Of a stretch of 64,000 bases of DNA, positions 27,465-53,811 are shown piece by piece. The first letter of the stretch is position 1; each line of letters opens with the position of its first letter. Under the pieces are notes generated by a model, which did no database searches, was not told where the DNA came from, and saw nothing but the letters and a program-made list of their open reading frames with translations. The position numbers and the translations under genes are program-made. The DNA comes from Marine Group II euryarchaeote MED-G37 (GTDB lineage Archaea > Thermoplasmatota > Poseidoniia > Poseidoniales > Thalassarchaeaceae): positions 132,420 through 196,419 of the forward strand of contig NTJQ01000001.1 of NCBI GenBank assembly GCA_002457555.1, given 5' to 3'.

Positions 27465-27563
27465 GGTTTTGCCGTCGACCAACCCCACATAAATCTCCCG
27501 TCGGTCCTATGGACCGAGTTGCGAGACGTTGAATACCCACTTCGATGTCGACAACATGTTCCC

Positions 27564-34229: not shown

Positions 34230-35357
34230 TCAATCAAATCGCTGAAGGTTTCCACCATCACGATTTCCACCATGTCTAGCGATATTTAGTGCGTCACCCA
34301 AAGAATCTGCGCTCATGATTTCACGATCGAGTCGTTCCGAAGCAACCCCTGTAATGATTGACATGACCTTGATAGTGTCGCCAAATGCAGGATCTTGGCG
34401 CGCCCCGAAGATAACATTCGCATCCGGCGATAAGCGCGCAGTCATCAAGTCACAAACTTGGTTCGCTTGTTCGAGAGTCATGTAAGGTCCACCTGTGACA
34501 TGAATCAATGCTCCAGTCGCGCCATCGATATCGATATCGAGCAATGGGTGGTTCAGGGCTTCATGGACCACATCCTCTGGACCTTGTTCACTCTCTCCGT
34601 AAAGCATCATAGTGACTCCTCCGTTCTTCATGATGGCTCTAACGTCTGCAAAGTCTAGGTTGATTAGACTTGGAAGAGTAATTGTCTCGACAATTCCCTT
34701 GACTATTTCTGCAATCAACTGGTCCATGATTGAGAAAGCCTCGTCGAGGGGAAGATTCGGGACGTAATGCAACAATCTATTGTTATCCAAAACTAGAACC
34801 GCATCTGCAGCTTTTCGGAGTAGGTCGAGTCCTTCCAGAGCTCTTTGCATTCTCATCCGGCGCTCTACTGAGAAAGGAGTTGTAACGATTGCAACAACAA
34901 GAGCACCGGAACGCTTAGCCTCTTCTGCGACTATTGGAGCGATACCAGTGCCTGTTCCTCCACCAAGTCCAGCGGTCACGAATACCAAATCAGCCCCGTT
35001 TACAATGCGGGTGATTACATCTCTTCCGGCTTCTGCGCATCTACGTCCAGTGATTGGATCTCCTCCTGCACCCAGACCTCGAGTAATGTGCCGGCCAACT
35101 AACAATTTTTGTTGCGCTCTTGTGTGATCTAGATGTTGTTTATCGGTGTTGATCGCGACAGTTATCGCGCCCTCAACTCCAATGTGAGTGATTCGATTCA
35201 TGGTATTGTTTCCAGAACCTCCGCAACCGCATACCAATATGCGAGGATCTGGAGGTCCAAAAGACTCCAACTCGCGGTCTGTTAAGGCGGTGGGAATTCT
35301 TTCTGCGGCAGTAGTGGTAGACCCTTCGCTCAACCCTGCCGACGAACCGCTCCCCAT
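34230..35357 (-). CDS. ftsZ: cell division GTPase FtsZ
   Basis: GCGGSGNNTMNR and GLGGGTGTG tubulin signature; ATG 35357 has GGAGG 7 nt upstream; the ORF extends to a TTG at 35411. Confidence 0.92.
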   Translation of the reverse strand: MGSGSSAGLSEGSTTTAAERIPTALTDRELESFGPPDPRILVCGCGGSGNNTMNRITHIGVEGAITVAINTDKQHLDHTRAQQKLLVGRHITRGLGAGGDPITGRRCAEAGRDVITRIVNGADLVFVTAGLGGGTGTGIAPIVAEEAKRSGALVVAIVTTPFSVERRMRMQRALEGLDLLRKAADAVLVLDNNRLLHYVPNLPLDEAFSIMDQLIAEIVKGIVETITLPSLINLDFADVRAIMKNGGVTMMLYGESEQGPEDVVHEALNHPLLDIDIDGATGALIHVTGGPYMTLEQANQVCDLMTARLSPDANVIFGARQDPAFGDTIKVMSIITGVASERLDREIMSADSLGDALNIARHGGNRDGGNLQRFD

Positions 35358-35535
35358 TGTATGTCCTCCGTGCATCCCTTGGGCATAGCGCCCTACGTCA
35401 TCGCAGTGCAATTTCTAGCCTTCTTAACCGTTGAGGGCATAGATGGGGTTGAGGATGCGATTATCGGAGTCTAGATGTTTGGCCGAAATGCCTCCGGAAA
35501 GCGAGATAAACAGGAGGTCGCCCGAACAGTTCGTG

Positions 35536-38473: not shown

Positions 38474-38731
38474 TTGATGGCGGAGAGCGAAGTCAGTCTG
38501 ATTCGGGATTTACCGGTCATCCTTCCCGGTGGTAGACTTCTCGGTACCGTCCACGATACGATAGTAGAGACGGATTCTTGGACCTGCACACACATCTTTG
38601 TTGCCGACCCCCCTGCAGATTTAGTCGAGGGCAGAATCCACGTTGCGGTTCCTTGGAATTGGGTGCGTTCGGTCGGAGATGTTGTGGTCCTACGCTGGTT
38701 TCCTCCCACTCCAATTCCTAAGGACGAATAA
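38474..38731 (+). CDS. PRC-barrel domain protein
   Basis: LPGGRLLGTVHDTIVETDSW...HVAVPWNWVRSVGDVVVL fits the PRC-barrel pattern. Confidence 0.55.
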   Translation: MMAESEVSLIRDLPVILPGGRLLGTVHDTIVETDSWTCTHIFVADPPADLVEGRIHVAVPWNWVRSVGDVVVLRWFPPTPIPKDE

Positions 38732-38815
38732 TCAATCAAAATTCTTTGATTTAATTGATATTTTTACGCACGGAAATGCGATACGATTCAAAAGGTGAGG
38801 GTCAACCCCTGCGTG

Positions 38816-41323
38816 ATGCAACGTAGTTCCGTAGTGCTGATGGTGTTGTTCCTATTGACCTCATCAGCCCCTGCAATCGATGCCGCTGGGAAGGGAGTGA
38901 TTTCCTGCACTCCGGCTGATTTAGACATGGTTCCTGCGAGTTGGGATATTGATGACGGTGCTTGTGTTCGAATCGATCTTGGTGTTCTTTCTGCAGGAGA
39001 CACGTTGTCTTTCGACGTATTGGCAAATACCAATGTTGACATTCTGCTATTTTCAGCGAGTTCAATCTCAGTCTATCAAAATGAACAGAATTACCGCTTA
39101 GACTCGGTTTGGCATTCCGATTCAGTATTCGAGTCATTTCAAGGAGATGGCACCTGGCATTGGACGGCTCCCGATGATAGAGGAGACACCCGCTGGTACC
39201 TAGTTCTCGATAACATGGCTCATCCACAGGATCAAGGCGAGGGCGCTCAGGCTGGTAGTCTCGCTACAGTAGTTCTAGATGTCCAAACAGTCGATAGCCC
39301 CGTATTCGGAATAGTCGACACAATTGTTCGTTTAGACAGCGGAGGTCATTCCGTACTCGCTGGCCCGCTAGTTCTCGACGAAGGAACTCAAGTCAACATA
39401 TTCGTAACAACTATGCAAGGGGCACCGGATATTTTCCTAGTGACTGGGACTCAAATGGAATTTTACGAACAAGGAACTACTGCTAATGGAATGGATGACA
39501 ATAATGCAGATATGTTGTTGGTTTTGGAAGAAAGAAGTATTTCATGGTCAGTAAACTCTGACTATTCAGGTCAGGAACTGTATCTTGTAGTGGATAATCG
39601 TCCAGGTCCTCCTAGCGGTGGTGCAGGCACAGGGTTCGTGGCAACCACTGTAGTAATGGATCTCATTCCAATATTGCAACCAACAATTACCAACGCCTCT
39701 GACCTAGCTACAATTGACGTTGGAGCAGAGGTAATACTCGATGCTTCAAACACTCCAAACCTTTCAAATCAAATCGATAGTGAAAACGGCTTTCAATGGG
39801 ATACCAACGGTGATGGGTTCTATGATGCCTCGAGTTCAACAATCACGGTAAGTTGGACTGAACCTGCCGAGATTAGTATCGGACTTAGAGTAGTTTCACA
39901 AGACGGTCGAAGCGCCACGGTTTATCTCAATACATCAATTCAGGACATTAGCCCACCCGATGTGAGTTTGTCTGCTAGTGATATAATTCGCAAAGACTTC
40001 GACGACGAACTCTTGCTAACCGCGAATATTGACGATAATTGGGGAATTTATTCTGTCGAGTGGTTGGTTGATGAGGCAGTAGTTCAGAACTACAGTAGTT
40101 GGAATTGGCAGGATGGTAAAACATTCACTTTCCGTTTTGATTCAAGCTATCTAGCAGGTAACCACGATGTTACCATTCGGGTTACTGACAATGAAGGACA
40201 AATAACCGAGCGTACCGCAATCATCGATTTGTACGATTCAACTCCTCCCATGGTTCCACAACAGACAGTAGAGACTACTGCTATTCTTGGTCAACCTATC
40301 CAGTTAACCGCCGAGGCTATTGATGCCGAATCCCCAACTCTAACCTATTTCTGGGACTTGGACATCAAGACAGATGCCAATTCAGATGGAATAATGGATA
40401 ACGATATGGATGCTAGTGGTTCTTCTATTACCGAAATTTTCCAACAGAAGGGTACCTACGAAATTGTTTGTACAATCGTCAACGAAGCAGGCGCCTCTAC
40501 TCAAGTTACCTACTTAGTATCCGTCCGTTCTTCCTCTGATGATGGTTCTGGATTAAGCCCAATGATGCTGGGAATGGCTGCGGTTGTATTGCTAATCATC
40601 ATCATCACCGTAATTGGTATGATTACATGGCGACGAATGTCTAATTCAAAACTTGAGGCATTGCTCGAGGAACAAGCCGCCGCTGAGGAGGAGATGCCTA
40701 GAGAACTCAGCGTCGAGGAACAGAAGGCAATGTATGGAGCAGGTTCTGCCACTCTTGACCAGCCAACTTCAATGTCGACTACATCGCAATTCGGCCAGTA
40801 TGGAACTGGTATGTCTGGTGCGAGTGATCCACAGGCCACAATTAGTGAGGATGCGGCGATGGGCGATTCAGACCTTGAAGCATTGATGAGTACCCCAGAA
40901 CCGATTTCCGAATCTAATCAATCGAGTCCTGCTTCGGAACTTCTTAGCCAGTTTTCCGACGATGATTCTGCCGTGGAGGAAGATTCAGTAGAATTTTCAC
41001 ATGATGAGTTAGCAGGTACTTCAGAAGAGGTTTGGTCTTCAGATGAACTCGAACAAGAGGATTCACTACCAACGCCTCCAGCTCCTGAACCAGAACCTGA
41101 AGCAGATTCTCTCCTAGATGGAGAAGATATTCCTGAACCTCCAGCTCCTCAAAGTGAGGAATCAGAATCTGTAGATGTTGTTCCGGAACCTAAATCGAGA
41201 ACTGTCCAGCAGGATTGTAGCCAGTGTAAGCAACGCTTTGAGGTGACCTTGCCGGAAGGCCATGATATTGCACGAACTGCATGTCCGTCCTGTGGCGCGA
41301 TTGAGACAATCCGCTTGACTTGA
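38816..41323 (+). CDS. type I surface protein: duplicated N-terminal module, PKD-like domains, TM helix, acidic disordered tail, C-terminal zinc ribbon
   Basis: Signal peptide MQRSSVVLMVLFLLTSSAPA; PKD-like FQWDTNGDG... and FWDLDIKTDANSDG...; TM 40562-40630; CSQC-x18-CPSC at 41216-41293. Confidence 0.7.
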   Translation: MQRSSVVLMVLFLLTSSAPAIDAAGKGVISCTPADLDMVPASWDIDDGACVRIDLGVLSAGDTLSFDVLANTNVDILLFSASSISVYQNEQNYRLDSVWHSDSVFESFQGDGTWHWTAPDDRGDTRWYLVLDNMAHPQDQGEGAQAGSLATVVLDVQTVDSPVFGIVDTIVRLDSGGHSVLAGPLVLDEGTQVNIFVTTMQGAPDIFLVTGTQMEFYEQGTTANGMDDNNADMLLVLEERSISWSVNSDYSGQELYLVVDNRPGPPSGGAGTGFVATTVVMDLIPILQPTITNASDLATIDVGAEVILDASNTPNLSNQIDSENGFQWDTNGDGFYDASSSTITVSWTEPAEISIGLRVVSQDGRSATVYLNTSIQDISPPDVSLSASDIIRKDFDDELLLTANIDDNWGIYSVEWLVDEAVVQNYSSWNWQDGKTFTFRFDSSYLAGNHDVTIRVTDNEGQITERTAIIDLYDSTPPMVPQQTVETTAILGQPIQLTAEAIDAESPTLTYFWDLDIKTDANSDGIMDNDMDASGSSITEIFQQKGTYEIVCTIVNEAGASTQVTYLVSVRSSSDDGSGLSPMMLGMAAVVLLIIIITVIGMITWRRMSNSKLEALLEEQAAAEEEMPRELSVEEQKAMYGAGSATLDQPTSMSTTSQFGQYGTGMSGASDPQATISEDAAMGDSDLEALMSTPEPISESNQSSPASELLSQFSDDDSAVEEDSVEFSHDELAGTSEEVWSSDELEQEDSLPTPPAPEPEPEADSLLDGEDIPEPPAPQSEESESVDVVPEPKSRTVQQDCSQCKQRFEVTLPEGHDIARTACPSCGAIETIRLT

Positions 41324-41419
41324 ATAGGGGATTTCTTTGCATTCCTTTCCCTCGATAAATGAGGTTCTTTGTGCTCTTGTAGCCCAAGACCCTAAATCGC
41401 ACCTCATAGAGGTGCGGCT

Positions 41420-44400
41420 ATGGAGAATGGTTCAGTGCGCTTGATTCGTACTGCGCCGAGAAACAAAATCTCTCTACCGGTTTTACTGGTAATTCTCTTT
41501 CTGTTACCGACAATGGCGCCCTTTGCAACCGTTAGTGGTGAGGCTAGAATAGAGTCACAGGACTTTCAGATTCTAGATGAATTGGGAAGTGTTCTAAACC
41601 AAAGAGAACAAGTGGTTTTGGGCGATTCTGTTAGCAATATAGCTGGCCCTTTATTGGACCAGGTTAGAGTTGGAGTGCAGGATACTTCAGTCGCCGACCC
41701 TCTCCATGATATCGATGAGGCTCTAGATGATGTCTTTATTGTAGAAACCGCTGCTCCTGCAGTCAATCACCCTGAACCTTACGTTATTCTTACCGACGAG
41801 AATAGTCGCCCCCCTGGAGAGGTCAGAACAATTTGGTCAACTTTGTTCAATTTGACGGATTACGTTATTTGGACTAGATATGTTGACAACGATGGTAATG
41901 TTGTTGAACAGGCGGAGAGCATTACATTCCTAACCAGTTTACTTTCTCTTTTGGACCCCGAAACCGATTTCTTACTACACCAAATGGATATTGATGACGA
42001 TGGCGATGATGATATTCAAGTCGGTCTCAGTGTCAATTTGAACAATATTGATTTATCTGGCACAACTCTTTCTGCATCTCCACAATTAGATTACCAAGTT
42101 AGCGTTCTTCCATCAAGTACCACTGATTCCGATTGGGATAATCTGCAAACCCTTGAGGTTAGTATCCTCAAAGCGTTTGCATATTCAGATGGCATTCTAA
42201 ACGAAGGAGAATCATATGTCTGGGTTATTGATTCTAAGTTTACTCACACCCCTTATGATTTTACTCTAGGCGTTGGTCTAGAGAGGTTTTCCTTCGATAT
42301 CTCAGGTGCTGGAGCGGACCTAATTTTGTCGCTAGTCAATGCACTTACATTCGGGGTTTTCAATGGAGGAGATGAGTCTGGGATTACCATTGCATCTATC
42401 GCAGCTCCTTACCAAATTTCGATAGACAATTCAGGGCAAACAGAATGCCCAGATCGCTATTCTCCAATTGAGCTGACAACTTTACCTTCGAGTGAAATAT
42501 CCTGTGGTGTAACTGCAGGATTTGGATATGTTCACTACTCGCCACCAGATTCTCAGGATGATAGGGAGGTTTGGGAAGTTGCCTATATTGAGGCAGCAGT
42601 ACATCCTAACCGACTTGCAACCATCCTTCCAGAAGAGGTCGAAGTAACCATTAGAACCGATAGTACCCTTGCAGACGGAACTGGTGATTTAGGAGAAAAT
42701 GGCTTGACTACGGTTGAGTATTGGGCTGATGAGAGGGCTGATTTTCATATCCACTTTCATGAAAACAGGTCAGAGGTCCCTCCTGAAAATTCCGATGGCA
42801 TCTACGGTAATGTGACCGACTCAAGCGGCTGGTTCCGAGGTATGCCGGAAGGAAGTCTGACCACAGAGGAGATAGATCGTACATTCACGATGCTGGGTTC
42901 TAAATCAGAACCCGAATTACCAGGTGGCCAACCAAATCGTCTAGGTTTGATTATTGGAGTCAAGAATTTCACAAGAGATACATCTCAAAATGTCGATGAT
43001 CCTTCTTTACCTGTTAATCCTGCATATCCTCCTAAGACTTTAGTTCTGGTTCGTTCGGTACAATCTCTAGAATCTGTCGAATATCACTCTTGGATGGAAC
43101 GTGGAGGTACAGACACAGACCATAGACGAATCGAAATTACAGCTGAAGAAATTCCTACTGCTTTAGTTTTCTTCGGCTCATTTGAATTAGGAGGAGCCGA
43201 GGATGCAGATACAAGCCTTGATTCGGGCACGAATCTAGATTTCCTTTCCCGAATTTTGGATGTCGTTCTAATAAATATCGTCGATTTATTCCTTGATATT
43301 GGTACTATATTGAATGATATTCCATCCGCTACGGTGGATGTTATCAGCGGAGGTGTTGGAGGCTCCGGTGGCCTCTCGGGCGAAACTCTTCACCTATTAA
43401 TGCACGATAATTGGAGGTTAGAGAGGGAAGCTAGGGCAATATCTGAGGTAGGTCTGCAAATTGGCTCAAGCCCTCATCCAACAATGTCTGGTGATCATCT
43501 TATCTTGTCTAAGGATAGAGAATTAGAGACTGTACAGGGTCGGAATGGGCCCCAGACTCCTTTAGTGCAGGTAGCTGCAAGTTTACGATTCAGCGGACTC
43601 AGTGCATTTACTCTGATAGATGAAATCGAAACTGACTCCCAGTCATTCTCTCTCCGAACATCATCTGAAAAATCTTTCACATTCCTTTACATCGACCATC
43701 AACCTTCCAACCTCGACGATGCTGCACATCAAGGATTATGGATTTCCGACATTCCGGATAACGTAACGGCGGATTTAACTCCAGAATTATCAACCTATAC
43801 TGCCAGTTCCACTATCGATAGAATTAGTTATACTGGAATCGAAGGAAATCAGAGACAAGCCGCCCATATACTAGATATTCCATCCGACTTTATTATTGAA
43901 TTTGGAGATACAACGAAATGGACAGCATCAACTCCTATTTCTACAATCCACGCACAGTTAACGGATGCTGAAAATCCAGTAACGATGAGCGGAGATCACT
44001 TCCTCTTCCATCACCACCCAGATGATGGAACCTCGACAATTTCGACTAAGATTTCTGGTCTACAAGAGGTTGGGTGGAAAGCCCCTGCTGTAGCTGGTGC
44101 AACAGGTGCGATGGGACAAGGTACCGCCTTTATGTCCGTAGCAGGAGATCGTACGATGAGCATCAATGTTGATCATGCACCAACTCAAGATGAAGGTGGC
44201 CTTTCCGCATTGGTGCTTATCGATCCATTGCCCTCAAATGTTTCAGTAGATATTCCGACGGGAGCTGATGCGGGGAATAATTTGGTCATCCCAGAATTGA
44301 ATACCTCTCAAGGGGTTTCTGGAGTCGCCTTTTTCCTAGGAGGATTTGCTGATCTAGGCCGTTCTGTCAATACAGTCCTTTCTGGAGTGACCAGCGAAAT

Positions 44401-45787
44401 TTCGACTGGTTCAACCGGTGGAAATGGGTCCTTTTCTTATGGCTTAGAGCTAGATGCGGATAGTGAATTCGACCTCCTCTTTGAGGCCAGTCAGGGTAAT
44501 GGGACTGCGGAAGAACCAGCATGGGTTCATGGCATCTCGATGAACGCAGCACCGAGTGGAATTTCTGACGGTTTCCATATTAGAGGATGGATCCCAAATC
44601 TTCCACCATTAATCGACATCACCGTTAGTCGCATGCCTAATTCAGACGGTGATGATTGGACAATTATGTTGGGTATGGAGGGGTGGCTCCCAGCCCGAAG
44701 TGAATTCATGCTCAATGCAAAGGGTGTCAATGGACAAGACCTCATGCTTACTTTACAAGGTTTGACTGTTGGTGAGACCACTAATTTGGGTATTGACTCT
44801 CAATTCACCATCAGAGAAACCAGTGGTGGAATTAATGAAGTAACTACATCCACTAGATTCGTACTATCAAATAGACTGGATTGGATTCATGCAGAGCTGA
44901 TTAACAGAGACGCAGGTGCACGAACAGAGATGTTAATTAACGATATTCCAGAATCAATAGATTTGCTAGCCAGCCTTGGTACTTCAATATCAATTGACAT
45001 GATTGTACCAGAAAAATATCGTCGGGATGGCCCAGCGGTAGATTCTATCATGTTGCAACAGATGCAATGGAGGGAAGGTGCATGGTGGCCTGCTACGGTA
45101 TTCCTAACCGATGTTCCTGACTCGATTAATCTGACCACAGAATCAGACGTAGATTATGATATCACGAAAACCTTGGCATTCCAAGGTACTCCTGTTCTTG
45201 ATTTCTCAGCATCAGATAGCGGAATGTCGCTATACATTGAGGCCAATGGTAGAGCGATAAATAATCGCGGCGACATGATACTTCTGGCTGAAGGATTGAC
45301 GGATCGCATGGTGATTAAGCCAACCTCAGATTATGGTCTAGCAATTAGAAGCGGTGGTGACGGTGTTGAGAGAATTTACCTACGAGCCTCCAATATGCCA
45401 ACAACACCTCCTGTAGTAATTGAGGAAGTAGAGGCTCTTGGAGAAAATCTTCGAAGTGCAACTATCCGAGTTGTTGAGGTCGTAGGCCCATACAGCATCA
45501 TCGAATTGGAAGATGTTCAAGGCGGGAGAATAATTGCTTCAGCTCGCGCTTCAGCTGAAGTTGATGCACTTGGTACAACATTCGACCTTAGGGGCGTCCT
45601 CCTAGATGCTCAAACGACAGGAGGAGTCCCTACCGGAACTAGTATTGGAGTCAATGGATTAGCATCCGACTTATCTCTTCTAAATCTGATTCCGGGTTTT
45701 GAAGGCTCAACTCACCACATCATTGTTCCTGAACCATTTTCATCCGGAGTTCTGACTTTATGTGCTACTTTCTTGGGAGGTGATTAA
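41420..45787 (+). CDS. 1455-aa secreted/anchored orphan protein with internal repeat motifs
   Basis: SD GAGGTG upstream; N-terminal hydrophobic anchor ISLPVLLVILFLLPTMAPFA; no known domain recognised; recurrent xDIPDxI motifs. Confidence 0.7.
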   Translation: MENGSVRLIRTAPRNKISLPVLLVILFLLPTMAPFATVSGEARIESQDFQILDELGSVLNQREQVVLGDSVSNIAGPLLDQVRVGVQDTSVADPLHDIDEALDDVFIVETAAPAVNHPEPYVILTDENSRPPGEVRTIWSTLFNLTDYVIWTRYVDNDGNVVEQAESITFLTSLLSLLDPETDFLLHQMDIDDDGDDDIQVGLSVNLNNIDLSGTTLSASPQLDYQVSVLPSSTTDSDWDNLQTLEVSILKAFAYSDGILNEGESYVWVIDSKFTHTPYDFTLGVGLERFSFDISGAGADLILSLVNALTFGVFNGGDESGITIASIAAPYQISIDNSGQTECPDRYSPIELTTLPSSEISCGVTAGFGYVHYSPPDSQDDREVWEVAYIEAAVHPNRLATILPEEVEVTIRTDSTLADGTGDLGENGLTTVEYWADERADFHIHFHENRSEVPPENSDGIYGNVTDSSGWFRGMPEGSLTTEEIDRTFTMLGSKSEPELPGGQPNRLGLIIGVKNFTRDTSQNVDDPSLPVNPAYPPKTLVLVRSVQSLESVEYHSWMERGGTDTDHRRIEITAEEIPTALVFFGSFELGGAEDADTSLDSGTNLDFLSRILDVVLINIVDLFLDIGTILNDIPSATVDVISGGVGGSGGLSGETLHLLMHDNWRLEREARAISEVGLQIGSSPHPTMSGDHLILSKDRELETVQGRNGPQTPLVQVAASLRFSGLSAFTLIDEIETDSQSFSLRTSSEKSFTFLYIDHQPSNLDDAAHQGLWISDIPDNVTADLTPELSTYTASSTIDRISYTGIEGNQRQAAHILDIPSDFIIEFGDTTKWTASTPISTIHAQLTDAENPVTMSGDHFLFHHHPDDGTSTISTKISGLQEVGWKAPAVAGATGAMGQGTAFMSVAGDRTMSINVDHAPTQDEGGLSALVLIDPLPSNVSVDIPTGADAGNNLVIPELNTSQGVSGVAFFLGGFADLGRSVNTVLSGVTSEISTGSTGGNGSFSYGLELDADSEFDLLFEASQGNGTAEEPAWVHGISMNAAPSGISDGFHIRGWIPNLPPLIDITVSRMPNSDGDDWTIMLGMEGWLPARSEFMLNAKGVNGQDLMLTLQGLTVGETTNLGIDSQFTIRETSGGINEVTTSTRFVLSNRLDWIHAELINRDAGARTEMLINDIPESIDLLASLGTSISIDMIVPEKYRRDGPAVDSIMLQQMQWREGAWWPATVFLTDVPDSINLTTESDVDYDITKTLAFQGTPVLDFSASDSGMSLYIEANGRAINNRGDMILLAEGLTDRMVIKPTSDYGLAIRSGGDGVERIYLRASNMPTTPPVVIEEVEALGENLRSATIRVVEVVGPYSIIELEDVQGGRIIASARASAEVDALGTTFDLRGVLLDAQTTGGVPTGTSIGVNGLASDLSLLNLIPGFEGSTHHIIVPEPFSSGVLTLCATFLGGD

Positions 45788-45788
45788 T

Positions 45789-46355
45789 TTGGGATTATTG
45801 AATAAAATCCGCTCTGAAAATGAGGATACAGAAGATTCTGACGCCGCGACTGAACGTGCTCATGAGATTCTTCAAATCGTCGGGGAACGTGTTGAGAAAG
45901 TTCGACCGAGCAGAGTTATTTTCGCCTCTGTAGCAGTATTACTGATACTTAGTGGAATCATGATTATTGGGACTTGGATAGTACCATACGACAGAACTTC
46001 CGTAGATGTTGTCTATCTTCAGGGGGTCGGTGGTCATGTTGTTTTGGCTGAATTAGATAACAAAGGATCCCGTTCAATTACTGATGTCCAATTAGATATT
46101 AGATTCCTAGATGACGATAGTAATGAAATTGCCAGATCTACTTTCCAAACCGATGAAATCGCCGCACATACTTCGATTGCTGGTGATAACCTAGAACTGA
46201 TTGCCCCGGGTGCTTCAGTTTGGGAAAATTACACCATTGAGATCATCTTAGATTATGCCTATCGTGGTACAGAATATAATGAAAGATGGACCTACAATGT
46301 AGGGAGTTGGACTATGGAGACGTTCACTTATGAGGCGCCTATGCACTTCCTTTGA
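45789..46355 (+). CDS. N-terminally anchored (type II) small membrane protein
   Basis: TTG one nt after the upstream stop (the ORF-track start 45762 overlaps by 26 nt); acidic N-terminus, TM VIFASVAVLLILSGIMIIGTWIV, about 110-aa beta-rich ectodomain. Confidence 0.5.
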   Translation: MGLLNKIRSENEDTEDSDAATERAHEILQIVGERVEKVRPSRVIFASVAVLLILSGIMIIGTWIVPYDRTSVDVVYLQGVGGHVVLAELDNKGSRSITDVQLDIRFLDDDSNEIARSTFQTDEIAAHTSIAGDNLELIAPGASVWENYTIEIILDYAYRGTEYNERWTYNVGSWTMETFTYEAPMHFL

Positions 46356-46431
46356 CACTACCTTAGGTCGTGAATTATTCGAAATGCATGTCACCCGAAT
46401 ACTGAAAGGCGACTCAATTGGGGGCTAATTT

Positions 46432-49400
46432 ATGGGACAGAGAATTGCGGTTGCGTTAATCGGGTTATTCCTAATATCCTTGCTTCCATTTGGCGATTTT
46501 AACACCGACCAAGCCGAAGATTCAACAGAGTCCCTAGATTGGTCTGTAAATCGCATAGAAATAGCTGCTGACCCCAATTCAATCCAAGACCTTCAATCCC
46601 CAACTGTGACAGAGGGATTTGAGAGAGTGAGGGTCAACAACGCTGATTCTAGCATTGGAGTATATACCGAGTCGGGATTGATTCCATCCGTTCATTTACC
46701 AAATTCTCTTTCTCATTATCGCTCGGACTTGGCAATGGTCATCGTCGATGGTGATGTGGGAATTTGGGATGCTCGTCTGGAATTAGAATCCTCAGCGGAA
46801 GTTGAGATACGAACAACCGTCCCCCCATCTGGATTCTTGGTTCAAGGGACACCTCAGGAATTGGATAAGCTAACAACTAATTCTGCAGTTGTTGCGTCAC
46901 ATCCAGTTCCAACCGGACTACTTGTTCATCCGTTACTGACAGTGGTTGAGGAAGGCTCGATTATGGTTGAGATCCTTGGCTGGAAGGATGATAACTTACA
47001 GAGGCATATGGAACCAGGGCTTGGTTTGGAAAGTTCTCTTACAGATGTTGCAAGTAAGTGGCTTACCGATGGATGGAGTCCTGAGGAGGGCCGATATTGG
47101 GGCGAAATTGAACTTTCTAACTTAGCCAGCATGCTTGAACACCCTGCTGTAGCATATGTTGCTCCTCTACCTGTTTTGGAACTAAAGAATGACAATGCTA
47201 GAAGCCATATGGGAATCAATACGGTTGAATCCTTTTTCATCACAAATATAGATGGGGCAGGTCAAACTATTGCTGTTGGAGACTCGGGAATAGATCACGA
47301 TCATGGAGATTTCAACAACCGCATTGCCGGTAGAACTTCAGTTACACCCGGAGATTCCTCTACTGCTGATTTATCCGATGGACACGGGACTCACGTTGCA
47401 TGCACTGTGTTAGGTTCCGGAATGAGAAGTAGTGGTTCCTATGAGGGAGTAGCGCCGGCAGCGGACCTATATTTTCAAGCGATGGAGGATGATGACTCCG
47501 GCGCCCTGTACAGTTACGGAATCAATAGTATGTTGAATTCTGCTTACAACGCAGGCGCCCGTTTACACACGAATAGTTGGGGCGCAGGCAGTGGTTTCGG
47601 TTCTTACTCAACTCAATCTGAGGATGCGGACGATCGAACATCAACTTGGGATCAATACTGGAACTACGATGGGATGACAGTTCTCTTTGCAGCTGGAAAC
47701 GAAAGAAACGATGGTGTATCTCCACCCGGTACAGCGAAGAATGTAATCACCGTTGGTGGGCACAAGAACCGATACAGCGGCTCACCGGATGAAATGTACT
47801 ATTGGAGTAGCCGTGGACCTACTGATGACGGGCGACTTAAGCCGGATTTAGTAGGCCCAGGTGACGGAGTCCGCTCATGTCTTTCCCAAGAAGCCGAGCA
47901 AGCATCTTCTGGCTGGTCAAATAATTGGTACATTGAGTACAGCGGTACTTCGATGGCAACACCCGCAGCAGCGGGTGCTGCAACTTTAGTGCGACAATAT
48001 CTCATGGATGTTGCAAATAGGCCTGCTCCTCAAGGAGCGCTGGTAAAGGCCCTACTAATTCTCGGCGCTCAAGATATGGGGGCTCGAAACATTCCAAACA
48101 ATGACGAGGGTTGGGGTAGGGTGAATCTTGTAAATTCACTTGTTCCAGATAGTGATGAGGGAATTTTTGTCGATGATCGTAGTCGTATTTCTTCCGGTCA
48201 AACCAAGGAATATACCTTCGAAATAACAAGAGGTGCAGAACCACTCAAGGTGGTATTAGCCTGGTCTGATTATCCTGGTTCTTCCCAGACTACGAATCAG
48301 TTGCGTAATGACCTGAACTTAGAGGTGATTCACCCCAATGGTGGGACTTCCTTCAAAGGTAATGTTTTCAGTGGCGGGAAATCAATTGCGGGCGGTAATT
48401 TTGACGATAAAAACAACGTCGAAGTAGTGCTGATAGATAATGCAGGCGTTGGTACATGGACAGTTCGTGTAACCGATGATTATCATGGTGGAAGTAGGAC
48501 TTGGCAACCTTATGCTTTAGCCGTAAGAGGAGTCAACGTAAACGACCTTTCGCCAGATCCAACATTTGCTCCCGACGTTTCAATCAACCCACCAATTCCG
48601 CAAATTGGAGATCCTGTTCAGATTCAAGTAACCGTCGAAAATCTTGGTGCAGGTTCGGTTTCAAATCTTGATGTGATGGCTAGGGCCGATGGCAGCCACA
48701 TATCCACTCAAACCATTTCGATGAGTCCTGGTGAGTCAGTAGATGTACAGTGGAATTGGACTCCGTCTACTGAAGGTTTAGTCGAATTGTCTTTCCATTT
48801 AGATCCAAATGATTTAGTGGAGGAATCAAATGAAGGAAATAATCTACTAACTCATACGATGATAATTAGCGCCCCTGGAGTCAGGGTGACCTCAGATGAA
48901 CCATTCATGACTTTAGGTGAAGCAGATGACAGTTCCACATCATGGAATATGCTTCTAACTAATACTGCATTATTCGAAACTAATGCAACAATCGAAACAA
49001 CTTCTCCTGTAAGGTTGAGTGATGGTGTTGAATTCGATTGGTATTCCTCACTTACTTCAAACACCTTTAATCTGCAAGAGGCAGAATCGGTAGAGGTAGG
49101 CCTCACGCTTATCCATCCGGCTCCTCCTGAACCAGGAACATATGTGATGACAGTAACCGGAACGGATATCGAGAATGATATTGAGTCTGAATTAGATCTA
49201 TATTTCGATGTGCCAATACTAGCCGCAGCAGATGTGCTAATTACATCTGGTAAAATTCCAGTCAGCCCTATCTCACAAACTCAATTACAAGTATTCGTAA
49301 CCAACGAAGGTAACGGACCTCAAACTTACGATGTAGAGTTAAGTTCGCCTGCTGGTTGGCATCTTGGATTAGATACTTTAGGGGCCTTTGAAGGCTCATC

Positions 49401-50922
49401 CCACGGTTCGACCGGAACTCTTGCTGTGGGTGAGAGCCGATCAATCGACATAACCGTCAACCCCCCAGGTGCTATGATTCAAGCAGGGTTGAATTTCGAT
49501 GCCGGTTTGACAGTTCATTCTAGAGTCAGTAGTGACTCTTGGTCAGTTCCGATTACCTTAGAGGTGATGGCTATGGACCAACTTTCTGCAACTCCTATTA
49601 GTGATGGGATTCAGTATGAGGTTTCTCCAGATGAAACTCTGAATCTCGAAATCGATTTCCTGAATACGGGTAACCGTCATTTAACCATGACTCCATATCA
49701 GAGAGCGATTCCTTCTGGATGGTCGATTGTTGGCGGACTCAACACATTGGAAGCACCGGCAGGAGAAGCCACAACTTGGTCGGTTACTTTGCAAGGTAAT
49801 GGTCGAGCAACAAGTGGTGATTTCAAACTGAGATTTGCTACGGATGACGGTTTCTCATTGGACTGGAATAGAACCATCGATGTTCTCTCAGCAGCGATTC
49901 CGAGCCTTGCATTCCACCAAGTAGTCTTGGCTGATGGAACAACATCCCCAACTCCTTTAGGAGTTGGTGCACATCCAGTTGGAACAGGTTTTGATTTGGC
50001 ATGGGAAGTTGAGAATGAGGGCACCTCGACTTGGCGTCCAATAACTTCAATCATCGTTCCTAATGATGACAATTGGGAAGCGAACTGCCCTATCACACCA
50101 TCATCACTAGCGGCTGGAGCGAGTAGCATAATCTGGTGCACGGTTACTATTCCTGTCTCAGAACAAGCAGGTTCTGAGCCAGTAGTTACTCTAAGGATGG
50201 AGGGAGAAGGTGTTGTTGTTGAGAATTCTATTTCACTCCTTGTTGATTCGGTTGCGGCCGTAGTTTGGGATTTGCGCACCGAATCTTTTGCCCATGAAGG
50301 ATATCCAGTTCAGATGACAATAGACATTCAGAATATCGGAAATTCGCAAATCAATCACAGACTTGATGTAAATGCTCCAGACGATTGGGGTGTTTTCATC
50401 GACGATGAATTGTTAGTCATCTTAAGTCCGGGGGAATCTCGATCAATAGTAATCGAATTCACCCCAGCCAGTGGTAGCGACGGCACTATTCAGTTAGCAT
50501 TACGAAATGGAGAACTTATCCAAGATTCAACTTTCAGTTTTGAGGTCGATGTAATGCCTGCACGAGGCGAGAGTAACAACATGGCATCAACTCTAATTCC
50601 TATCCTCATTATTCTCCTAATCGCGATTCTTGCAGGAGGCGGATTCTATGTATTCCAACAAAAGGGTGGTAAATTGGAATCAATAATGGCAAATGAAGCT
50701 GTAAGTAAGATTACCGATTCTCTAAATATTACCGAAAAAGAAAGTGGTTCTGGTATTGAATGCTGGGTCTGTAGTGGTGATATCATCGTTGGTGAAGCCT
50801 TAGCTTGCGGTAGTTGTGGGGCTCGTTATCATCGACCAGGTCAAGTAGGCGGGTGTGATATTCTTTCACTCGGAAAGTGCCTTCACTGCAATGCGGATTG
50901 GAACGAGTTAGTCGACGCATAA
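46432..50922 (+). CDS. giant S8 subtilisin-like serine protease with CARDB/NEW3-like Ig repeats, TM helix and cytoplasmic Cys/His zinc-finger tail
   Basis: Catalytic triad motifs VGDSGID (D284), DGHGTHVA (H318), SGTSMATP (S507), AAGNE oxyanion Asn. CARDB-like PIPQIGDPVQIQVTVENLGAG...NEGNN; TM near 50581-50660; zinc-finger tail at 50761-50889. Confidence 0.85.
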   Translation: MGQRIAVALIGLFLISLLPFGDFNTDQAEDSTESLDWSVNRIEIAADPNSIQDLQSPTVTEGFERVRVNNADSSIGVYTESGLIPSVHLPNSLSHYRSDLAMVIVDGDVGIWDARLELESSAEVEIRTTVPPSGFLVQGTPQELDKLTTNSAVVASHPVPTGLLVHPLLTVVEEGSIMVEILGWKDDNLQRHMEPGLGLESSLTDVASKWLTDGWSPEEGRYWGEIELSNLASMLEHPAVAYVAPLPVLELKNDNARSHMGINTVESFFITNIDGAGQTIAVGDSGIDHDHGDFNNRIAGRTSVTPGDSSTADLSDGHGTHVACTVLGSGMRSSGSYEGVAPAADLYFQAMEDDDSGALYSYGINSMLNSAYNAGARLHTNSWGAGSGFGSYSTQSEDADDRTSTWDQYWNYDGMTVLFAAGNERNDGVSPPGTAKNVITVGGHKNRYSGSPDEMYYWSSRGPTDDGRLKPDLVGPGDGVRSCLSQEAEQASSGWSNNWYIEYSGTSMATPAAAGAATLVRQYLMDVANRPAPQGALVKALLILGAQDMGARNIPNNDEGWGRVNLVNSLVPDSDEGIFVDDRSRISSGQTKEYTFEITRGAEPLKVVLAWSDYPGSSQTTNQLRNDLNLEVIHPNGGTSFKGNVFSGGKSIAGGNFDDKNNVEVVLIDNAGVGTWTVRVTDDYHGGSRTWQPYALAVRGVNVNDLSPDPTFAPDVSINPPIPQIGDPVQIQVTVENLGAGSVSNLDVMARADGSHISTQTISMSPGESVDVQWNWTPSTEGLVELSFHLDPNDLVEESNEGNNLLTHTMIISAPGVRVTSDEPFMTLGEADDSSTSWNMLLTNTALFETNATIETTSPVRLSDGVEFDWYSSLTSNTFNLQEAESVEVGLTLIHPAPPEPGTYVMTVTGTDIENDIESELDLYFDVPILAAADVLITSGKIPVSPISQTQLQVFVTNEGNGPQTYDVELSSPAGWHLGLDTLGAFEGSSHGSTGTLAVGESRSIDITVNPPGAMIQAGLNFDAGLTVHSRVSSDSWSVPITLEVMAMDQLSATPISDGIQYEVSPDETLNLEIDFLNTGNRHLTMTPYQRAIPSGWSIVGGLNTLEAPAGEATTWSVTLQGNGRATSGDFKLRFATDDGFSLDWNRTIDVLSAAIPSLAFHQVVLADGTTSPTPLGVGAHPVGTGFDLAWEVENEGTSTWRPITSIIVPNDDNWEANCPITPSSLAAGASSIIWCTVTIPVSEQAGSEPVVTLRMEGEGVVVENSISLLVDSVAAVVWDLRTESFAHEGYPVQMTIDIQNIGNSQINHRLDVNAPDDWGVFIDDELLVILSPGESRSIVIEFTPASGSDGTIQLALRNGELIQDSTFSFEVDVMPARGESNNMASTLIPILIILLIAILAGGGFYVFQQKGGKLESIMANEAVSKITDSLNITEKESGSGIECWVCSGDIIVGEALACGSCGARYHRPGQVGGCDILSLGKCLHCNADWNELVDA

Positions 50923-50984
50923 ATCGCGACCTAAGGGGCCACGTAGCCCGAAGCCCTTAGAGGGGCTCGATTGTCGGCCAATCG

Positions 50985-53660
50985 ATGAATCGTGCTTCTT
51001 CGGCCCGTCTGCTGACGGTATTGCTAGTAATCACGATGCTGTCTCCATTGGTTCAGGCCGAGATAGATCCTCGGTTAACTGCAAGCCCAACGGCTCAGGA
51101 AGCAGATGCGGATAACCCGGCAGAATATACGATCACCATCCATAATGATGGCGACGATGATATGGCGGTTAGCTTGAGTACTCAACAGGACTCATCTAAT
51201 TGCAACGGCTTCAGTTCCACCATAGAACAGGTATCTGGAGCCATAGGTGGTGGCGAATCTGAACAAGTGACTCTTACCGTAAGCGTAAATGAGCAGGCAA
51301 ATGGAGAGTGTGAAACCACCGTCCAAGCGACAGCAACCGGTGGAGCAGGGGCGCCCAAGAATGCCGACGTTACGGTAACAACCACAGCAGGAGACGGCGG
51401 AGGCCTCTATGCTATCCAATTATCAACCGATGAAACAGATGTTGAATTTGACGGAAGCGATTCAGTAGTCTGGGACGTTGAGGTTGAGAATACGGGCGAA
51501 CAACAGGCCAATGTACAACTGGAGATGACCAGTGATAACGACTGTGAATCGGATGACCTGACTGCTGAGGTAGACCCTACTGTAGTTCAGTTGGATTCAG
51601 GAGATACCGAAACCGTCGAAGTGACCGTGGATGTTCCCGACGGTAGCTCTACCGAAGCAGGAGAGCATTGTTTCCTCCTTTTGGCTACTGTAACTAATGA
51701 TCCGAATGCCGCCGATAGAGCCGAGGACAATCTCACACTCAAGTTGAGTGTGCCAGAAGTGAAGGAATGTGATGGCTCATTGCAGACTTCTTCTCACAAC
51801 CTCGATCCTGGCCAGACAGCGACAAATAGTTTCGAAGTAGAAAATATCGGAAATACTGAATGGACTGTTCAAACGCAAGCCCAATCTCCCGGAACAGATA
51901 TCTCTGGATGGGTTGTATTTGATAGTCCGAAGTCTGCATTATTAGCCAAACCAGGAAATTCCGACGACAGTCATACGTTCACTTTCTCAGTAACGCCTGA
52001 CGATTCAGTTGAGGCTGGTTCACAGATTGAAATCAAGATACAGGGCCGTTCAAATCAAGGCGTTGGCTGTGAGCAAATACTCACAGTGACTATCGGGCAG
52101 GTGCATGAAGCTAGACTGACCCTAAGCACCTCGAAATTATCCAATGTAGAACCAGGAACCTCCGATTCAGTTACTATAACCGTAGAAAACCGCGGCAATG
52201 GTTTAGACACGTTTTCTCTAACAACAATGGACCTTCCAGAAGGATGGCAAATTTCCTTTTCCCAGTCTTCTGTGACGATAAACAGTAAGCACAACTCCAA
52301 CAACGAAGAATCACTAACTGCTACAGTAAATGTGCCATCAAACGCTCTAGCAGGGGACAATACTGTTGAATTCGGTGTGACTGTTAGTGGCTCAACAACC
52401 ATATTGCATAGCAGGGTGCTAACAGTTTCCGTAGCCGCAAGACACGACCTTACTGCAGACATACTTTCGACTCAGCAAACTGGTCGTTCAGGCCAAGTAG
52501 TCCAGTTCCCAATTGATATTGTTAACACGGGAAATATTCGAGATACATTCAAACTACAGGTATGTGACCCTAACGATCAAACTGGCTGTAACCCTCCAAT
52601 GTGGGCAGCATCATATTCCGATACCTCTGGGAATTCAATTACTCAAATTATTCTTGATCCGGGAGAATCTAGACGAGTATTCCTCGACGTAACGGTGGAA
52701 GGAGAGGAAGATGCAGATTCAGTAACAATCCTGTCGCGCGTAGCAATTTTTGGAACGAGTGAAAAGATAGAGCAAACGATTAGTGTGATAGTCTCGAATT
52801 ACGATTATGGCATGGCCATCTCTCCCGAAATGCCAGGGCCAATTGCGGGTCAAATGGATATTGTTCTTCCACCTGGCGGGACCACGCAAGTCAGTTTTTG
52901 GGTAGAGAATACAGGCAACTTTCCCGGTGGTGATAGTGCAGTCATCTCTATGACAGGCATGGAATCTTCTGTACTCCGTCGAGTCCTGATCAATGGAGTA
53001 GCGGTAGATGGAAATATTGCAGTTCCTTCAGGAGACAGAGTCCTAGTGACCATTGAATTGGAAGTTCTAGAAGGTGTTTCTAGCGGAACTACAGGTATTG
53101 TAAAGATCAGCGCATCTTCGGAGAAGAACGCTGCAGAAAGCACCAGTGTAGACTTGATTTTTGAAGTTAGAACAATACATGATTTACGATTCACCCTAGA
53201 AGGTGAGGATGAATTAACTACAGATGAAAAAACAAGTGCTGAGTTCATTCTGCACGTTACAAATCATGGAAATATTGTTGAAACAGTCCAGATACTAACT
53301 AGCGATTCTCTCAGAGGGTGGACAGTTAATGTCATCGAGGACGAGTTCGAACTCTCCCCAGGTAATTCACGAACGATTATCGTAAGAGTCACTCCTCCCG
53401 CAGGAATGGTGCAGGATGACACCTACCGATTCACCATTACTGTGCAACCGAAGGGTATGCCGGTGGCCGGCGAACCTCTAGACTTGGAAGTCACCGCTGA
53501 GGTATCTTCCGGGCTAAGTTGGTTGAGCGAAGATAACGAACAGATTCTAATTTACGGATTAACTTCTATTGGTGGTATATTAGTTATTATTTTGTATTTC
53601 AGATCACGTGCAGAAAATCGTAGAATACTCAAAGCCTTGGATAACGAATCGAGTGACTGA
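50985..53660 (+). CDS. surface protein of about 8 tandem CARDB/NEW3-like Ig domains with C-terminal TM anchor
   Basis: Signal peptide. Recurrent strand motif x-V/I-x-N-x-G-N (ITIHNDGD, VEVENTGE, FEVENIGN, ITVENRGN, IDIVNTGN, FWVENTGN, LHVTNHGN); TM ILIYGLTSIGGILVIILYF. Confidence 0.7.
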   Translation: MNRASSARLLTVLLVITMLSPLVQAEIDPRLTASPTAQEADADNPAEYTITIHNDGDDDMAVSLSTQQDSSNCNGFSSTIEQVSGAIGGGESEQVTLTVSVNEQANGECETTVQATATGGAGAPKNADVTVTTTAGDGGGLYAIQLSTDETDVEFDGSDSVVWDVEVENTGEQQANVQLEMTSDNDCESDDLTAEVDPTVVQLDSGDTETVEVTVDVPDGSSTEAGEHCFLLLATVTNDPNAADRAEDNLTLKLSVPEVKECDGSLQTSSHNLDPGQTATNSFEVENIGNTEWTVQTQAQSPGTDISGWVVFDSPKSALLAKPGNSDDSHTFTFSVTPDDSVEAGSQIEIKIQGRSNQGVGCEQILTVTIGQVHEARLTLSTSKLSNVEPGTSDSVTITVENRGNGLDTFSLTTMDLPEGWQISFSQSSVTINSKHNSNNEESLTATVNVPSNALAGDNTVEFGVTVSGSTTILHSRVLTVSVAARHDLTADILSTQQTGRSGQVVQFPIDIVNTGNIRDTFKLQVCDPNDQTGCNPPMWAASYSDTSGNSITQIILDPGESRRVFLDVTVEGEEDADSVTILSRVAIFGTSEKIEQTISVIVSNYDYGMAISPEMPGPIAGQMDIVLPPGGTTQVSFWVENTGNFPGGDSAVISMTGMESSVLRRVLINGVAVDGNIAVPSGDRVLVTIELEVLEGVSSGTTGIVKISASSEKNAAESTSVDLIFEVRTIHDLRFTLEGEDELTTDEKTSAEFILHVTNHGNIVETVQILTSDSLRGWTVNVIEDEFELSPGNSRTIIVRVTPPAGMVQDDTYRFTITVQPKGMPVAGEPLDLEVTAEVSSGLSWLSEDNEQILIYGLTSIGGILVIILYFRSRAENRRILKALDNESSD

Positions 53661-53781
53661 GCCTAGACGTTTAGCGAGGACAAATCCAAACCTCGAATCT
53701 TTCTATTGTATTGTCTGTGCTGAGCATCCTCAATGAACACACGGTTATGCTTATGACCGTATTTTCCGTGGCCGAGTCTGT

Positions 53782-53798
53782 CGGTCCCTACGGGACCG
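53782..53798 (+). promoter_or_regulatory. GC-rich 7-bp hairpin abutting the nuoA ribosome-binding site
   Basis: CGGTCCC-TAC-GGGACCG, ending 2 nt before SD AGGTG (53801-53805) and 13 nt before ATG 53812. Confidence 0.3.
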
Positions 53799-53811
53799 TC
53801 AGGTGTCAGCG

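Follow-up and report, generated by a model that had tools for sequence, protein, structure and literature searches.

A Candidate Cluster of Cell-Envelope Genes in Marine Group II Archaea and the Older Two-Gene Module That May Underlie It

In the sunlit ocean, few archaea are as abundant as the Marine Group II (MGII) euryarchaeotes. They have been described as uncultured archaea that probably degrade proteins and peptides, and the literature that we searched holds no description of the gene cluster considered here or of the MGII cell envelope. The cluster lies in a stretch of 64,000 nucleotides (nt) from Marine Group II euryarchaeote MED-G37, hereafter the window, and comprises five consecutive + strand genes, O1 to O5 (Table 1), with products that range from a 188-residue membrane protein to a 1496-residue anchored subtilase. 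Our preferred explanation, which we advance tentatively and would not yet back at an even chance, is that these genes form a conserved cell-envelope cluster of MGII (Poseidoniales) built around an older two-gene module, O2-O3, and working by the scaffold and protease mechanism set out below. Loci from other genomes are designated by L numbers where they need to be told apart.

The five genes and their products

The five genes are real: their open frames of 2.5-4.5 kb, every one with orthologs, are not chance products. They are separated by gaps of 96 (O1-O2), 1 (O2-O3), 76 (O3-O4) and 62 nt (O4-O5), as an initial annotation made from the sequence alone had described, and the lengths that it gave for O1 and O3, 835 and 188 amino acids (aa), correspond to the starts supported by orthologs. 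A GTG at 38795 would extend O1 to 842 aa, whereas the ATG at 38816 agrees with ortholog N-termini; for O3, the TTG at 45789 is preferred over a GTG at 45762 (197 aa) because of the Shine-Dalgarno (SD) sequence GGGAGGTGA and the ortholog start 'MGLL'. An N-terminal hydrophobic segment is present in all five proteins, in keeping with the signal peptide or anchor that had been assigned to each. O1, O4 and O5 had been described as ending in a single transmembrane helix; a transmembrane-like segment is indeed found in each (592-610, 1384-1402 and 854-872, respectively), but tails of ~230 and 94 aa follow it in O1 and O4. In O3 the only hydrophobic segment is the N-terminal anchor at 52-70, and its description as an N-anchored stub stands.

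O2 carries a Sec-type signal peptide and an acidic, Ca-like DxDxDGxxD motif at aa 190-198, and its composition is acidic (14.6 % D+E). No Pfam or NCBIfam family matches it, six distant members of its family are likewise without a Pfam match, and its profile finds nothing among PDB sequences at E ≤ 10. A word-indexed search, which close relatives saturated, returned 241 relatives; the 120 listed among them are all at least 56 % identical to O2, and where a source name is given it is that of Thalassarchaeaceae, Thermoplasmatota or Euryarchaeota archaea. When aa 256-1455 were searched exhaustively against 1.84 billion representatives, 177 proteins came up at E ≤ 1e-3, including full-length relatives of 1241-1836 aa with 20-42 % identity, in many deep clusters. 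The few named relatives are proteins of metagenome-assembled genomes (MAGs), each of a Thermoplasmata, Euryarchaeota, Poseidoniia or Poseidoniales archaeon, with no name of a cultured organism seen among them, and a profile built on distant members added one further clade only. As judged by these sequences, O2 founds a Thermoplasmatota family, of proteins 1250-1850 aa long, that has gone unannotated. Common to the family are the signal peptide, an N-terminal acidic motif of the D-x-D-x-D-G type and the C-terminal motif H-h-h-x-P-[EAD]-P-h-[ST]-[ST], which is followed by 12-16 mostly hydrophobic residues and in no clade by an Arg/Lys tail. A C-terminal sorting signal (PEP-CTERM, PGF-CTERM etc.) was ruled out on the lack of an NCBIfam match, the shortness of the hydrophobic stretch and the missing basic cluster. 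The positions that are invariant across the family are Pro, Gly and Trp, which argues for a structural rather than a catalytic role.

The AlphaFold2 model of O2 (aa 256-1455; pLDDT 78.9, pTM 0.68) is a beta-meander of very large size in which long hairpins follow one another and a helix closes the chain, and includes two long internal helices of 30-36 residues (~608-643 and ~967-996); domain C, the most conserved part of the protein, is modelled as ~35 beta strands and the terminal helix. For the predicted fold, although modelled with confidence, no solved structural neighbour was found: Foldseek searches of the PDB gave nothing at E ≤ 1e-3 for the 1200-aa model (best E 2e-3) and a best E of 0.026 for domain C, with TM-score ≤ 0.16 for both, and the single BFVD match at E ≤ 1e-3 (E 1.2e-4) has a TM-score of just 0.09. 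Membership of O2 in S-layer, adhesin, beta-helix, RBG and LptD groups was rejected at domain-level TM-scores ≤ 0.16. The early impression that the orphan parts of the cluster are without a characterised relative holds across the Pfam, NCBIfam and PDB searches, which came back empty, and in the Foldseek scores of O2. Internal repeats are suggested, though not conclusively, by weak hhalign matches of O2 to itself (E 1e-5 to 6e-5, probability 66-81 %) and by a modest enrichment of D[ILVM]P turns (6 observed vs 1.6 ± 1.2).

The weak matches that rank highest in Foldseek are long beta-meander proteins (mostly ApoB100, LptD/LptDE, LPD-3, TamA and BamA), and these, along with the long consecutive hairpins and the hydrophobic internal helices of the model, would suit a long beta-sheet groove or bridge that handles lipid or lipoglycan at the envelope with ABC-2 exporters, in analogy with LptD, AsmA/TamB and bridge-like lipid-transfer proteins. 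ABC-2 type transporters do adjoin O2 homologues outside MGII (L020 5379-9809, L021 5354-9802, L027 3378-5329), and one of the permeases carries a NEW3 Ig-like insert. This adjacency is limited to two of seven non-MGII clades, a second membrane is not known for MGII, and matches at E ≥ 2e-3, probability ≤ 0.15 and TM-score ≤ 0.16 are such as any long beta meander would give; a role of this kind strikes us as very improbable. Assignment of O2 to repeating beta-groove, AsmA-TamB or LptD-like proteins was rejected with best E-values of 8e-3 (LptDE) and 0.03-0.14 (LPD-3) at the same TM-scores.

O3 consists of a charged cytoplasmic N-terminus, one transmembrane helix and an extracellular Ig-like domain of the FxLYD type (~115 aa). 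It is a borderline pass for NF038353 FxLYD_dom (E 2.9e-5, 23.9 bits vs a cutoff of 23) and has no match among PDB sequences at E ≤ 1. SD-like GAGGTG sequences precede many starts in the window, and since the SD of O3 lies inside the end of O2, with a gap of 1 nt between the two genes, translational coupling of O2 and O3 is a solid prediction.

O4 is predicted to consist of a signal peptide, an orphan N-terminal region (~30-260), a subtilase with its C-terminal beta domain (264-681), a CARDB domain (715-807), some five further Ig-like domains, the transmembrane helix and a C4HC3 zinc finger. Peptidase_S8 (PF00082) is matched over its full length (1-288/288) at 275-562 with E 7.8e-45 and 153.8 bits vs a cutoff of 21.8, CARDB with E 1.8e-23, and NEW3 and other Ig-type families more weakly. 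Residues 264-681 align with residues 12-417 of the 434 in PDB 1wmd_A (E 4.4e-70), i.e., with a KP-43-type subtilase including its C-terminal beta domain, and nearly as well with SubHal (5fax, E 8.5e-69). The triad D284, H318 and S507 and the oxyanion residue N423 are invariant in four orthologs, and the protease is predicted to be catalytically intact. In one study, between one and four extracellular S8 genes were predicted for each of the MGII MAGs, and MGII are seen as degraders of extracellular protein (PMC6864105). The zinc finger is a weak match to Prok-RING_1 (E 0.013, 15.9 bits vs a gathering cutoff of 29.1), with its pattern kept in five of six lineages (L010, L018, L022 and L025 have it). 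At L016 (15010-19500) an acidic, Cys-free tail stands in place of the RING-like finger, and the remainder of the protein is kept.

O1 begins with a signal peptide and a conserved orphan region of ~270 aa, continues with PKD/Ig-like modules (~349-586) and the transmembrane helix, and ends in a predicted cytoplasmic tail made up of an acidic, poorly conserved linker of ~200 aa and a putative C-terminal zinc ribbon. The PKD module at 485-572 scores 38.3 bits against PKD_4 (cutoff 27) and 31.8 against PKD (cutoff 23.5), and the O1 profile matches the PKD domains of ColH and KIAA0319L in the PDB; the N-terminal region has neither a Pfam match nor a PDB sequence match, the PDB profile search having reached PKD-type modules only. 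The four Cys of the ribbon (CxxC-x17-CxxC) are invariant in seven orthologs (L022, L025 and five others), with matches to Zn_ribbon_Nudix and Zn_ribbon_8 that stay below gathering (E 2e-4 to 5e-4, 20.5-21.5 bits vs cutoffs of 25.6-34.4). O5 comprises a signal peptide, about eight Ig-like domains (with FixG_C, NEW3 and HYDIN-type Ig matches), the C-terminal transmembrane helix and a short basic tail; it passes NF041740 'choice-of-anchor T' in five stretches (E 1.7e-30, 106 bits vs a cutoff of 70) and has no PDB sequence match. NF041740 and NF038353 name fold-level modules, and we found no function attached to either name. The kinds of domain that the initial annotation had been able to name were recovered (PKD in O1, the S8 triad and CARDB in O4, NEW3-like Ig folds in O4 and O5), as were the putative cytoplasmic zinc tails of O1 and O4, the Cys patterns of which are conserved in three deep Poseidoniales lineages. 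That extracellular proteins should carry such tails hints at a coupling between inside and outside, of which we know of no characterised archaeal example.

Table 1. Features of the O1-O5 cluster and its borders, in window coordinates
Feature	Position	Strand	Evidence or remark
PRC-barrel ORF (open reading frame), 85 aa, TTG start	38474-38731	+	PF05239 E 4.2e-5, 23.9 bits vs cutoff 21.2
Conserved block CGATACGATTCAAAAG	38781-38796		before O1
O1, 835 aa from ATG	38816-41323	+	signal peptide, orphan N-terminal region, PKD/Ig, transmembrane helix, putative zinc ribbon
O1 predicted cytoplasmic zinc ribbon CSQC-x17-CPSC	41216-41314	+	sub-gathering Pfam matches, invariant Cys
Stem-loop CGCACCUC-loop-GAGGUGCG	41397-41417	+	dG -16.4 kcal/mol, z -3.98, invariant in six MGIIb loci
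O2, 1455 aa	41420-45787	+	orphan family, Sec-type signal peptide
O2 domain C, aa 1005-1455	44432-45784	+	AlphaFold2 pLDDT 89.6, pTM 0.88
Shine-Dalgarno GGGAGGTGA of O3	45775-45783	+	read directly, inside last O2 codons
O3, 188 aa from TTG	45789-46355	+	transmembrane helix, FxLYD-type Ig-like domain
Conserved block AACCCnnAnnCTnAAA	spacer 46356-46431		before O4
O4, 1496 aa	46432-50922	+	PF00082, CARDB, transmembrane helix, putative zinc finger
O4 predicted cytoplasmic RING/PHD-like zinc finger CxxC-x11-CxxC-x4-H-x7-C-x7-CxxC	50752-50892	+	Prok-RING_1 E 0.013
Conserved block CGAAGCCCTTAGAGGGGC	spacer 50923-50984		before O5
O5, 891 aa	50985-53660	+	NF041740, Ig-like domains, C-terminal transmembrane helix
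Conserved block GTCGGTCCCTACGGGACCG	spacer 53661-53802		before nuoA

Distribution of the cluster and of the O2-O3 pair

A scan of GTDB with O2 recovered 15 loci with 73-97 % O2 identity, all of them from MGIIb Thalassarchaeaceae (including Ca. Thalassarchaeum / MGIIb-O1); the window, too, is MGIIb DNA (Ca. Thalassarchaeum). The order L15e-PRC-O1-O2-O3-S8-O5-nuoABC is kept in other MGIIb genera (L005, L010, L016-L019), and the order from L15e to nuoA is found again in L022 and L025 (the latter on a 3.0-Mb contig), two lineages that lie far deeper within Poseidoniales, such that the gene-order conservation that the initial annotation had proposed to look for in relatives does exist. The five L022 proteins stand at similar distances from those of the window (O1 26, O2 32, O3 35, O4 36 and O5 33 % identity), unlike L15e (69 %) and NuoB (76 %).

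Outside MGII, the O2-O3 pair is what can be followed. Of seven non-MGII Thermoplasmatota clades, five (L020/L021, L023, L024, L029 and L030) have an O3 homologue directly 3' of the O2 homologue, among neighbours that are otherwise unrelated. In L020 and L021, from 'Thermoplasmata archaeon', a 149-aa ORF with the same transmembrane plus Ig-like layout as O3 comes 6-8 nt after an O2 homologue of 1311-1318 aa; in L024, from a Poseidoniia clade, an O2 homologue of 1807 aa has the O3 homologue directly downstream and the pair adjoins FtsZ; and in L023 the O3 homologue, which has a long charged N-terminus, overlaps the O2 stop. Similarity of the small downstream ORFs to O3 reaches E 1e-4 by BLASTP and a probability of 96.6 % (E 5.4e-10) by hhalign profile-profile comparison. 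A hidden Markov model (HMM) of O3, from the building of which L025, L026, L029 and L030 were left out, matches the ORF directly downstream of the O2 homologue in all four with E 1.3e-18 to 4.8e-43, and in the non-MGII held-out loci L029 and L030 with E 1e-18 to 3e-28. It appears that O2 and O3 have been co-inherited across uncultured Thermoplasmatota, and their translational coupling and deep co-conservation lead us to infer a physical O2-O3 assembly.

In L024 (8821-15870) the pair is divergently adjacent to ftsZ, with secE, spt5 and rpl11 beyond it, and in the window ftsZ (34230-35411) lies 3.4 kb upstream of the cluster on the opposite strand; this proximity could have survived from an ancestral gene order or could point to some connection with division. 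Large beta-helix/NosD plus PKD/CARDB surface proteins occur within 7 kb in L021, L028 and L030.

Gene order of this kind could also reflect juxtaposition without assembly, i.e., a self-contained, ancient O2-O3 envelope module, an independent extracellular protease O4 anchored in the membrane and ordinary Ig-repeat surface proteins O1 and O5 that have been kept together by L15e-nuo collinearity. Several observations weigh on that side or against our preferred explanation. The entire block from L15e to nuo is collinear in Poseidoniales, and the placement of O1, O4 and O5 next to O2-O3 could therefore reflect inherited order rather than selection. No S8 protease, O1 or O5 is found near the O2 homologues in any of the seven non-MGII clades examined, and, since the pair occurs there without them, its function would be independent of these three proteins. 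In L025 four genes, of which two are encoded on the opposite strand, stand between O1 and O2; O1 is separable from the rest of the cluster. Several other S8 genes are present elsewhere in MGII genomes, as exemplified by gene 59 of the MAG SIMO Bin 19-2. Against our preferred explanation there are also L027 and L028, where no O3 homologue is adjacent, and L016, where the O4 zinc finger is absent.

What speaks for more than juxtaposition is that O2, O3, O4 and O5 are contiguous and co-directional in every Poseidoniales locus seen (in L025 they still run without a break into nuoA), while gene content upstream of L15e varies and those flanks have been rearranged. The O3-O4 spacer shrinks to only 18 nt in L022, and the similar divergence of the five proteins points the same way. 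We consider juxtaposition possible but on the whole rather unlikely. As to the claim in the initial annotation that the locus is centred on an S8 protease, this does not hold in the evolutionary sense: as far as can be read from the distribution of homologues, the core of the cluster is the ancient unit O2+O3, and the missing S8, O1 and O5 at non-MGII loci suggest that the protease association is an addition at the level of MGII.

Spacers, expression and flanking genes

Each spacer of the cluster, as well as the spacer before nuoA, holds a short block that is conserved across MGIIb genera even though the proteins of those genera are no more than 57-60 % identical, and these blocks may be promoters, leader elements or hairpins. 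Such blocks, one to each spacer, and a T7 run after O1 in L010 are compatible with separate promoters and terminators, as juxtaposition without assembly would have it. The stem-loop before O2 (8-9 bp) ends 3 nt before the O2 start and pairs the SD-like GAGGUG, and it could serve as a translational throttle or a processing site; its sequence is invariant across the six MGIIb loci, among which there is no covariation. The hairpin upstream of O2 in L022 is no better than shuffles (z 0.51), and the fold of the O4-O5 spacer is not significant (z -0.74). Upstream of 6 of 44 genes, vs ~2 expected, there is a C[CT]TWWW box between -45 and -16, an enrichment too weak for promoters to be called. The initial annotation had taken the tight spacing as a sign of a single transcription unit that encodes a multi-protein surface assembly. 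Neither is established, and the O1-O2 split in L025 and the conserved block in every spacer speak against the single unit; that the five genes form one operon is neither shown nor excluded.

The same locus is present in the near-identical MGIIb-O1 MAG SIMO Bin 19-2 as genes 394-398 (PMC9723583, Supplementary Table S3, supplementary file 4), with gene lengths that match the window and an identical O4-O5 spacer of 62 nt. Expression values are read-normalised coverages from one coastal metatranscriptome dataset of low depth. In the best-covered sample (sample 1) coverage was 0.174 for O1, 0.131 for O2, 0.135 for O4 and 0.168 for O5, as compared with 0.15-0.26 for nuoA-C, 1.24 for L15e, 1.73 for S27e and 6.79 for L44e (PMC9723583). 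O1, O2, O4 and O5 are thus expressed in situ at similar, average levels, which fits co-expression and counts against mere juxtaposition; O3 had zero coverage in that sample, a point that joins those set against our preferred explanation above. The differentially expressed subtilase of the dark-incubation table of PMC9723583 is gene 558, not gene 395, and identification of O4 with the 'highly transcribed subtilase' of that study was rejected.

These values also bear on the possibility of a two-component S-layer, in which O2 would form a canopy held by O3 as its membrane anchor (SlaA/SlaB-like), with a bound or maturating subtilase in MGII (STABLE-like). Genes for major S-layer proteins normally rank with the most strongly expressed of a cell. 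With a coverage of 0.13, where the ribosomal protein genes of this MAG reach 1.2-6.8 in the sample concerned, O2 stands at the level of nuo genes, which disfavours it as a dominant lattice protein. Furthermore, N-glycosylation sequons are not enriched in O2 (11 in 1455 aa, near a rough composition-based estimate), a long coiled-coil stalk is not predicted, the 50 PDB matches that Foldseek ranks highest for each O2 model include no solved S-layer protein, and O2 matches no PDB chain by sequence. On the other hand, an archaeal S-layer with a bound subtilase has a precedent, MGII are not known to have any other envelope protein, and the acidity of O2, its Ca-like motif and the structural role suggested by its conserved Pro, Gly and Trp would suit a lattice. 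The pairing of a large secreted beta-rich protein with a small adjacent anchor gene parallels the bicistronic slaA-slaB (PMC5744192). We regard an S-layer as unlikely.

The flanks consist of archaeal housekeeping genes: on its upstream side the cluster has genes for FtsZ, a TPR protein, rpL15e and the small PRC-barrel ORF, and on its downstream side nuoA, B, C, D, H and I. The PRC-barrel ORF lies between rpL15e and O1, has the same position in L016-L019 and L022 (every Poseidoniales locus for which this interval was checked) and is transcribed above O1-O5 in SIMO Bin 19-2 (coverage 0.574); we list it as a conserved neighbour and at most a candidate member of the module. Elsewhere in the window, a 764-aa M14 zinc carboxypeptidase (27459-29753) has its stop overlapping the start of a symporter of the sodium:neurotransmitter family (SNF; 29753-31558), plausibly a peptidase paired with an amino-acid uptake carrier. 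A 1089-aa protein (7569-10838) is probably an RND-type transporter on account of its MMPL, Patched and sterol-sensing-domain matches, and a 424-aa ORF with a GTG start (24456-25730) has no Pfam match at E ≤ 1e-5.

Known systems and a proposed surface module

Several known systems resemble parts of the cluster. Bacterial cell-envelope proteinases digest extracellular protein at the cell surface. Like O4, these enzymes (lactocepin PrtP, C5a peptidase ScpA and SpyCEP) have an S8 domain N-terminal to an array of Ig/Fn3-like domains and a surface anchor, and they are among the PDB sequence matches of O4 (E 1e-7 to 4e-6), such that O4 resembles, in layout, an archaeal analogue of them. It differs in its archaeal host, in a catalytic domain that is KP-43-like (1wmd, E 4e-70) and not of their type, in having no PA-domain insert (by Pfam scan) and in an anchor composed of a transmembrane helix and a putative cytoplasmic zinc finger instead of LPXTG. 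O4 as a proteinase of the PrtP/ScpA type proper was rejected on the missing PA domain and on its transmembrane and zinc-finger C-terminus. With the KP-43 and SubHal subtilases of Bacillus (1wmd, 5fax) O4 shares the catalytic and C-terminal beta domains; these chains of ~434 aa appear without its ~700-aa Ig array, transmembrane helix, zinc-finger tail and orphan N-terminal region.

For O2 and O3 a parallel in layout is SlaA/SlaB of Sulfolobales, a large beta-rich secreted protein and a small membrane-anchored beta-sandwich partner encoded in a tight bicistron (PMC5744192), from which O3 departs in its N-terminal rather than C-terminal transmembrane anchor and in being without a coiled coil, and O2 in its average transcript level. 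Assignment of the pair to the SlaA/SlaB type was not supported: PDB sequence searches gave nothing at E ≤ 10 for O2 or at E ≤ 1 for O3, the 50 top Foldseek matches of each O2 model held no solved S-layer protein, and the coverage of O2 in the one dataset fell far below that of L15e and L44e. In Staphylothermus marinus the subtilisin-family protease STABLE is physically bound to tetrabrachion, a giant archaeal surface protein, and one role suggested for STABLE is to supply peptides to a peptide-consuming archaeon. No long coiled-coil stalk is predicted in any of the five proteins, O4 has its own membrane anchor, and an association of O4 with O2 is putative.

Under the explanation that we prefer, an O2-O3 pair would have been joined in the MGII ancestor to O4, a KP-43-type subtilase on an Ig-domain stalk with a transmembrane anchor, and the set would have come to be flanked by the Ig/PKD-repeat, transmembrane-anchored O1 and O5. 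O2, a giant Sec-exported, putatively all-beta protein, might owe its retention at the membrane to O3, to its own conserved C-terminal hydrophobic helix or to both, and would serve as a structural scaffold. O3, a small membrane protein of N-in/C-out orientation that has a single Ig-like ectodomain, would anchor O2. At the cell surface O4 would cleave extracellular protein, O1 and O5 might provide spacers or binders in the form of their Ig/PKD arrays, and the zinc-finger tails of O1 and O4 may touch a cytoplasmic partner. Any physical complex, the use of O2 as a scaffold, the substrate and the part played by the tails are all things that we infer.

A more far-reaching version, which we find doubtful, would have O2+O3 as a previously unrecognised envelope structure, made from a fold that lacks solved relatives, of MGII, of Poseidoniia resembling Marine Group III (MGIII) and of other uncultured Thermoplasmatota that in MGII has recruited a tethered subtilase and Ig-repeat proteins with zinc-finger tails, making up a cytoplasm-coupled surface machine for high-molecular-weight protein. 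If this is true, the O2-O3 structure with its recruited subtilase would be a new kind of archaeal cell-surface organelle. What is new about the cluster is the O2/O3 family and the association with a protease that this family shows specifically in MGII. For MGII, it provides a concrete, conserved and expressed candidate set of genes for the envelope and for surface-bound proteolysis, and the O2-O3 pair lends itself well to structural studies and to following how the envelope evolved across Thermoplasmatota.

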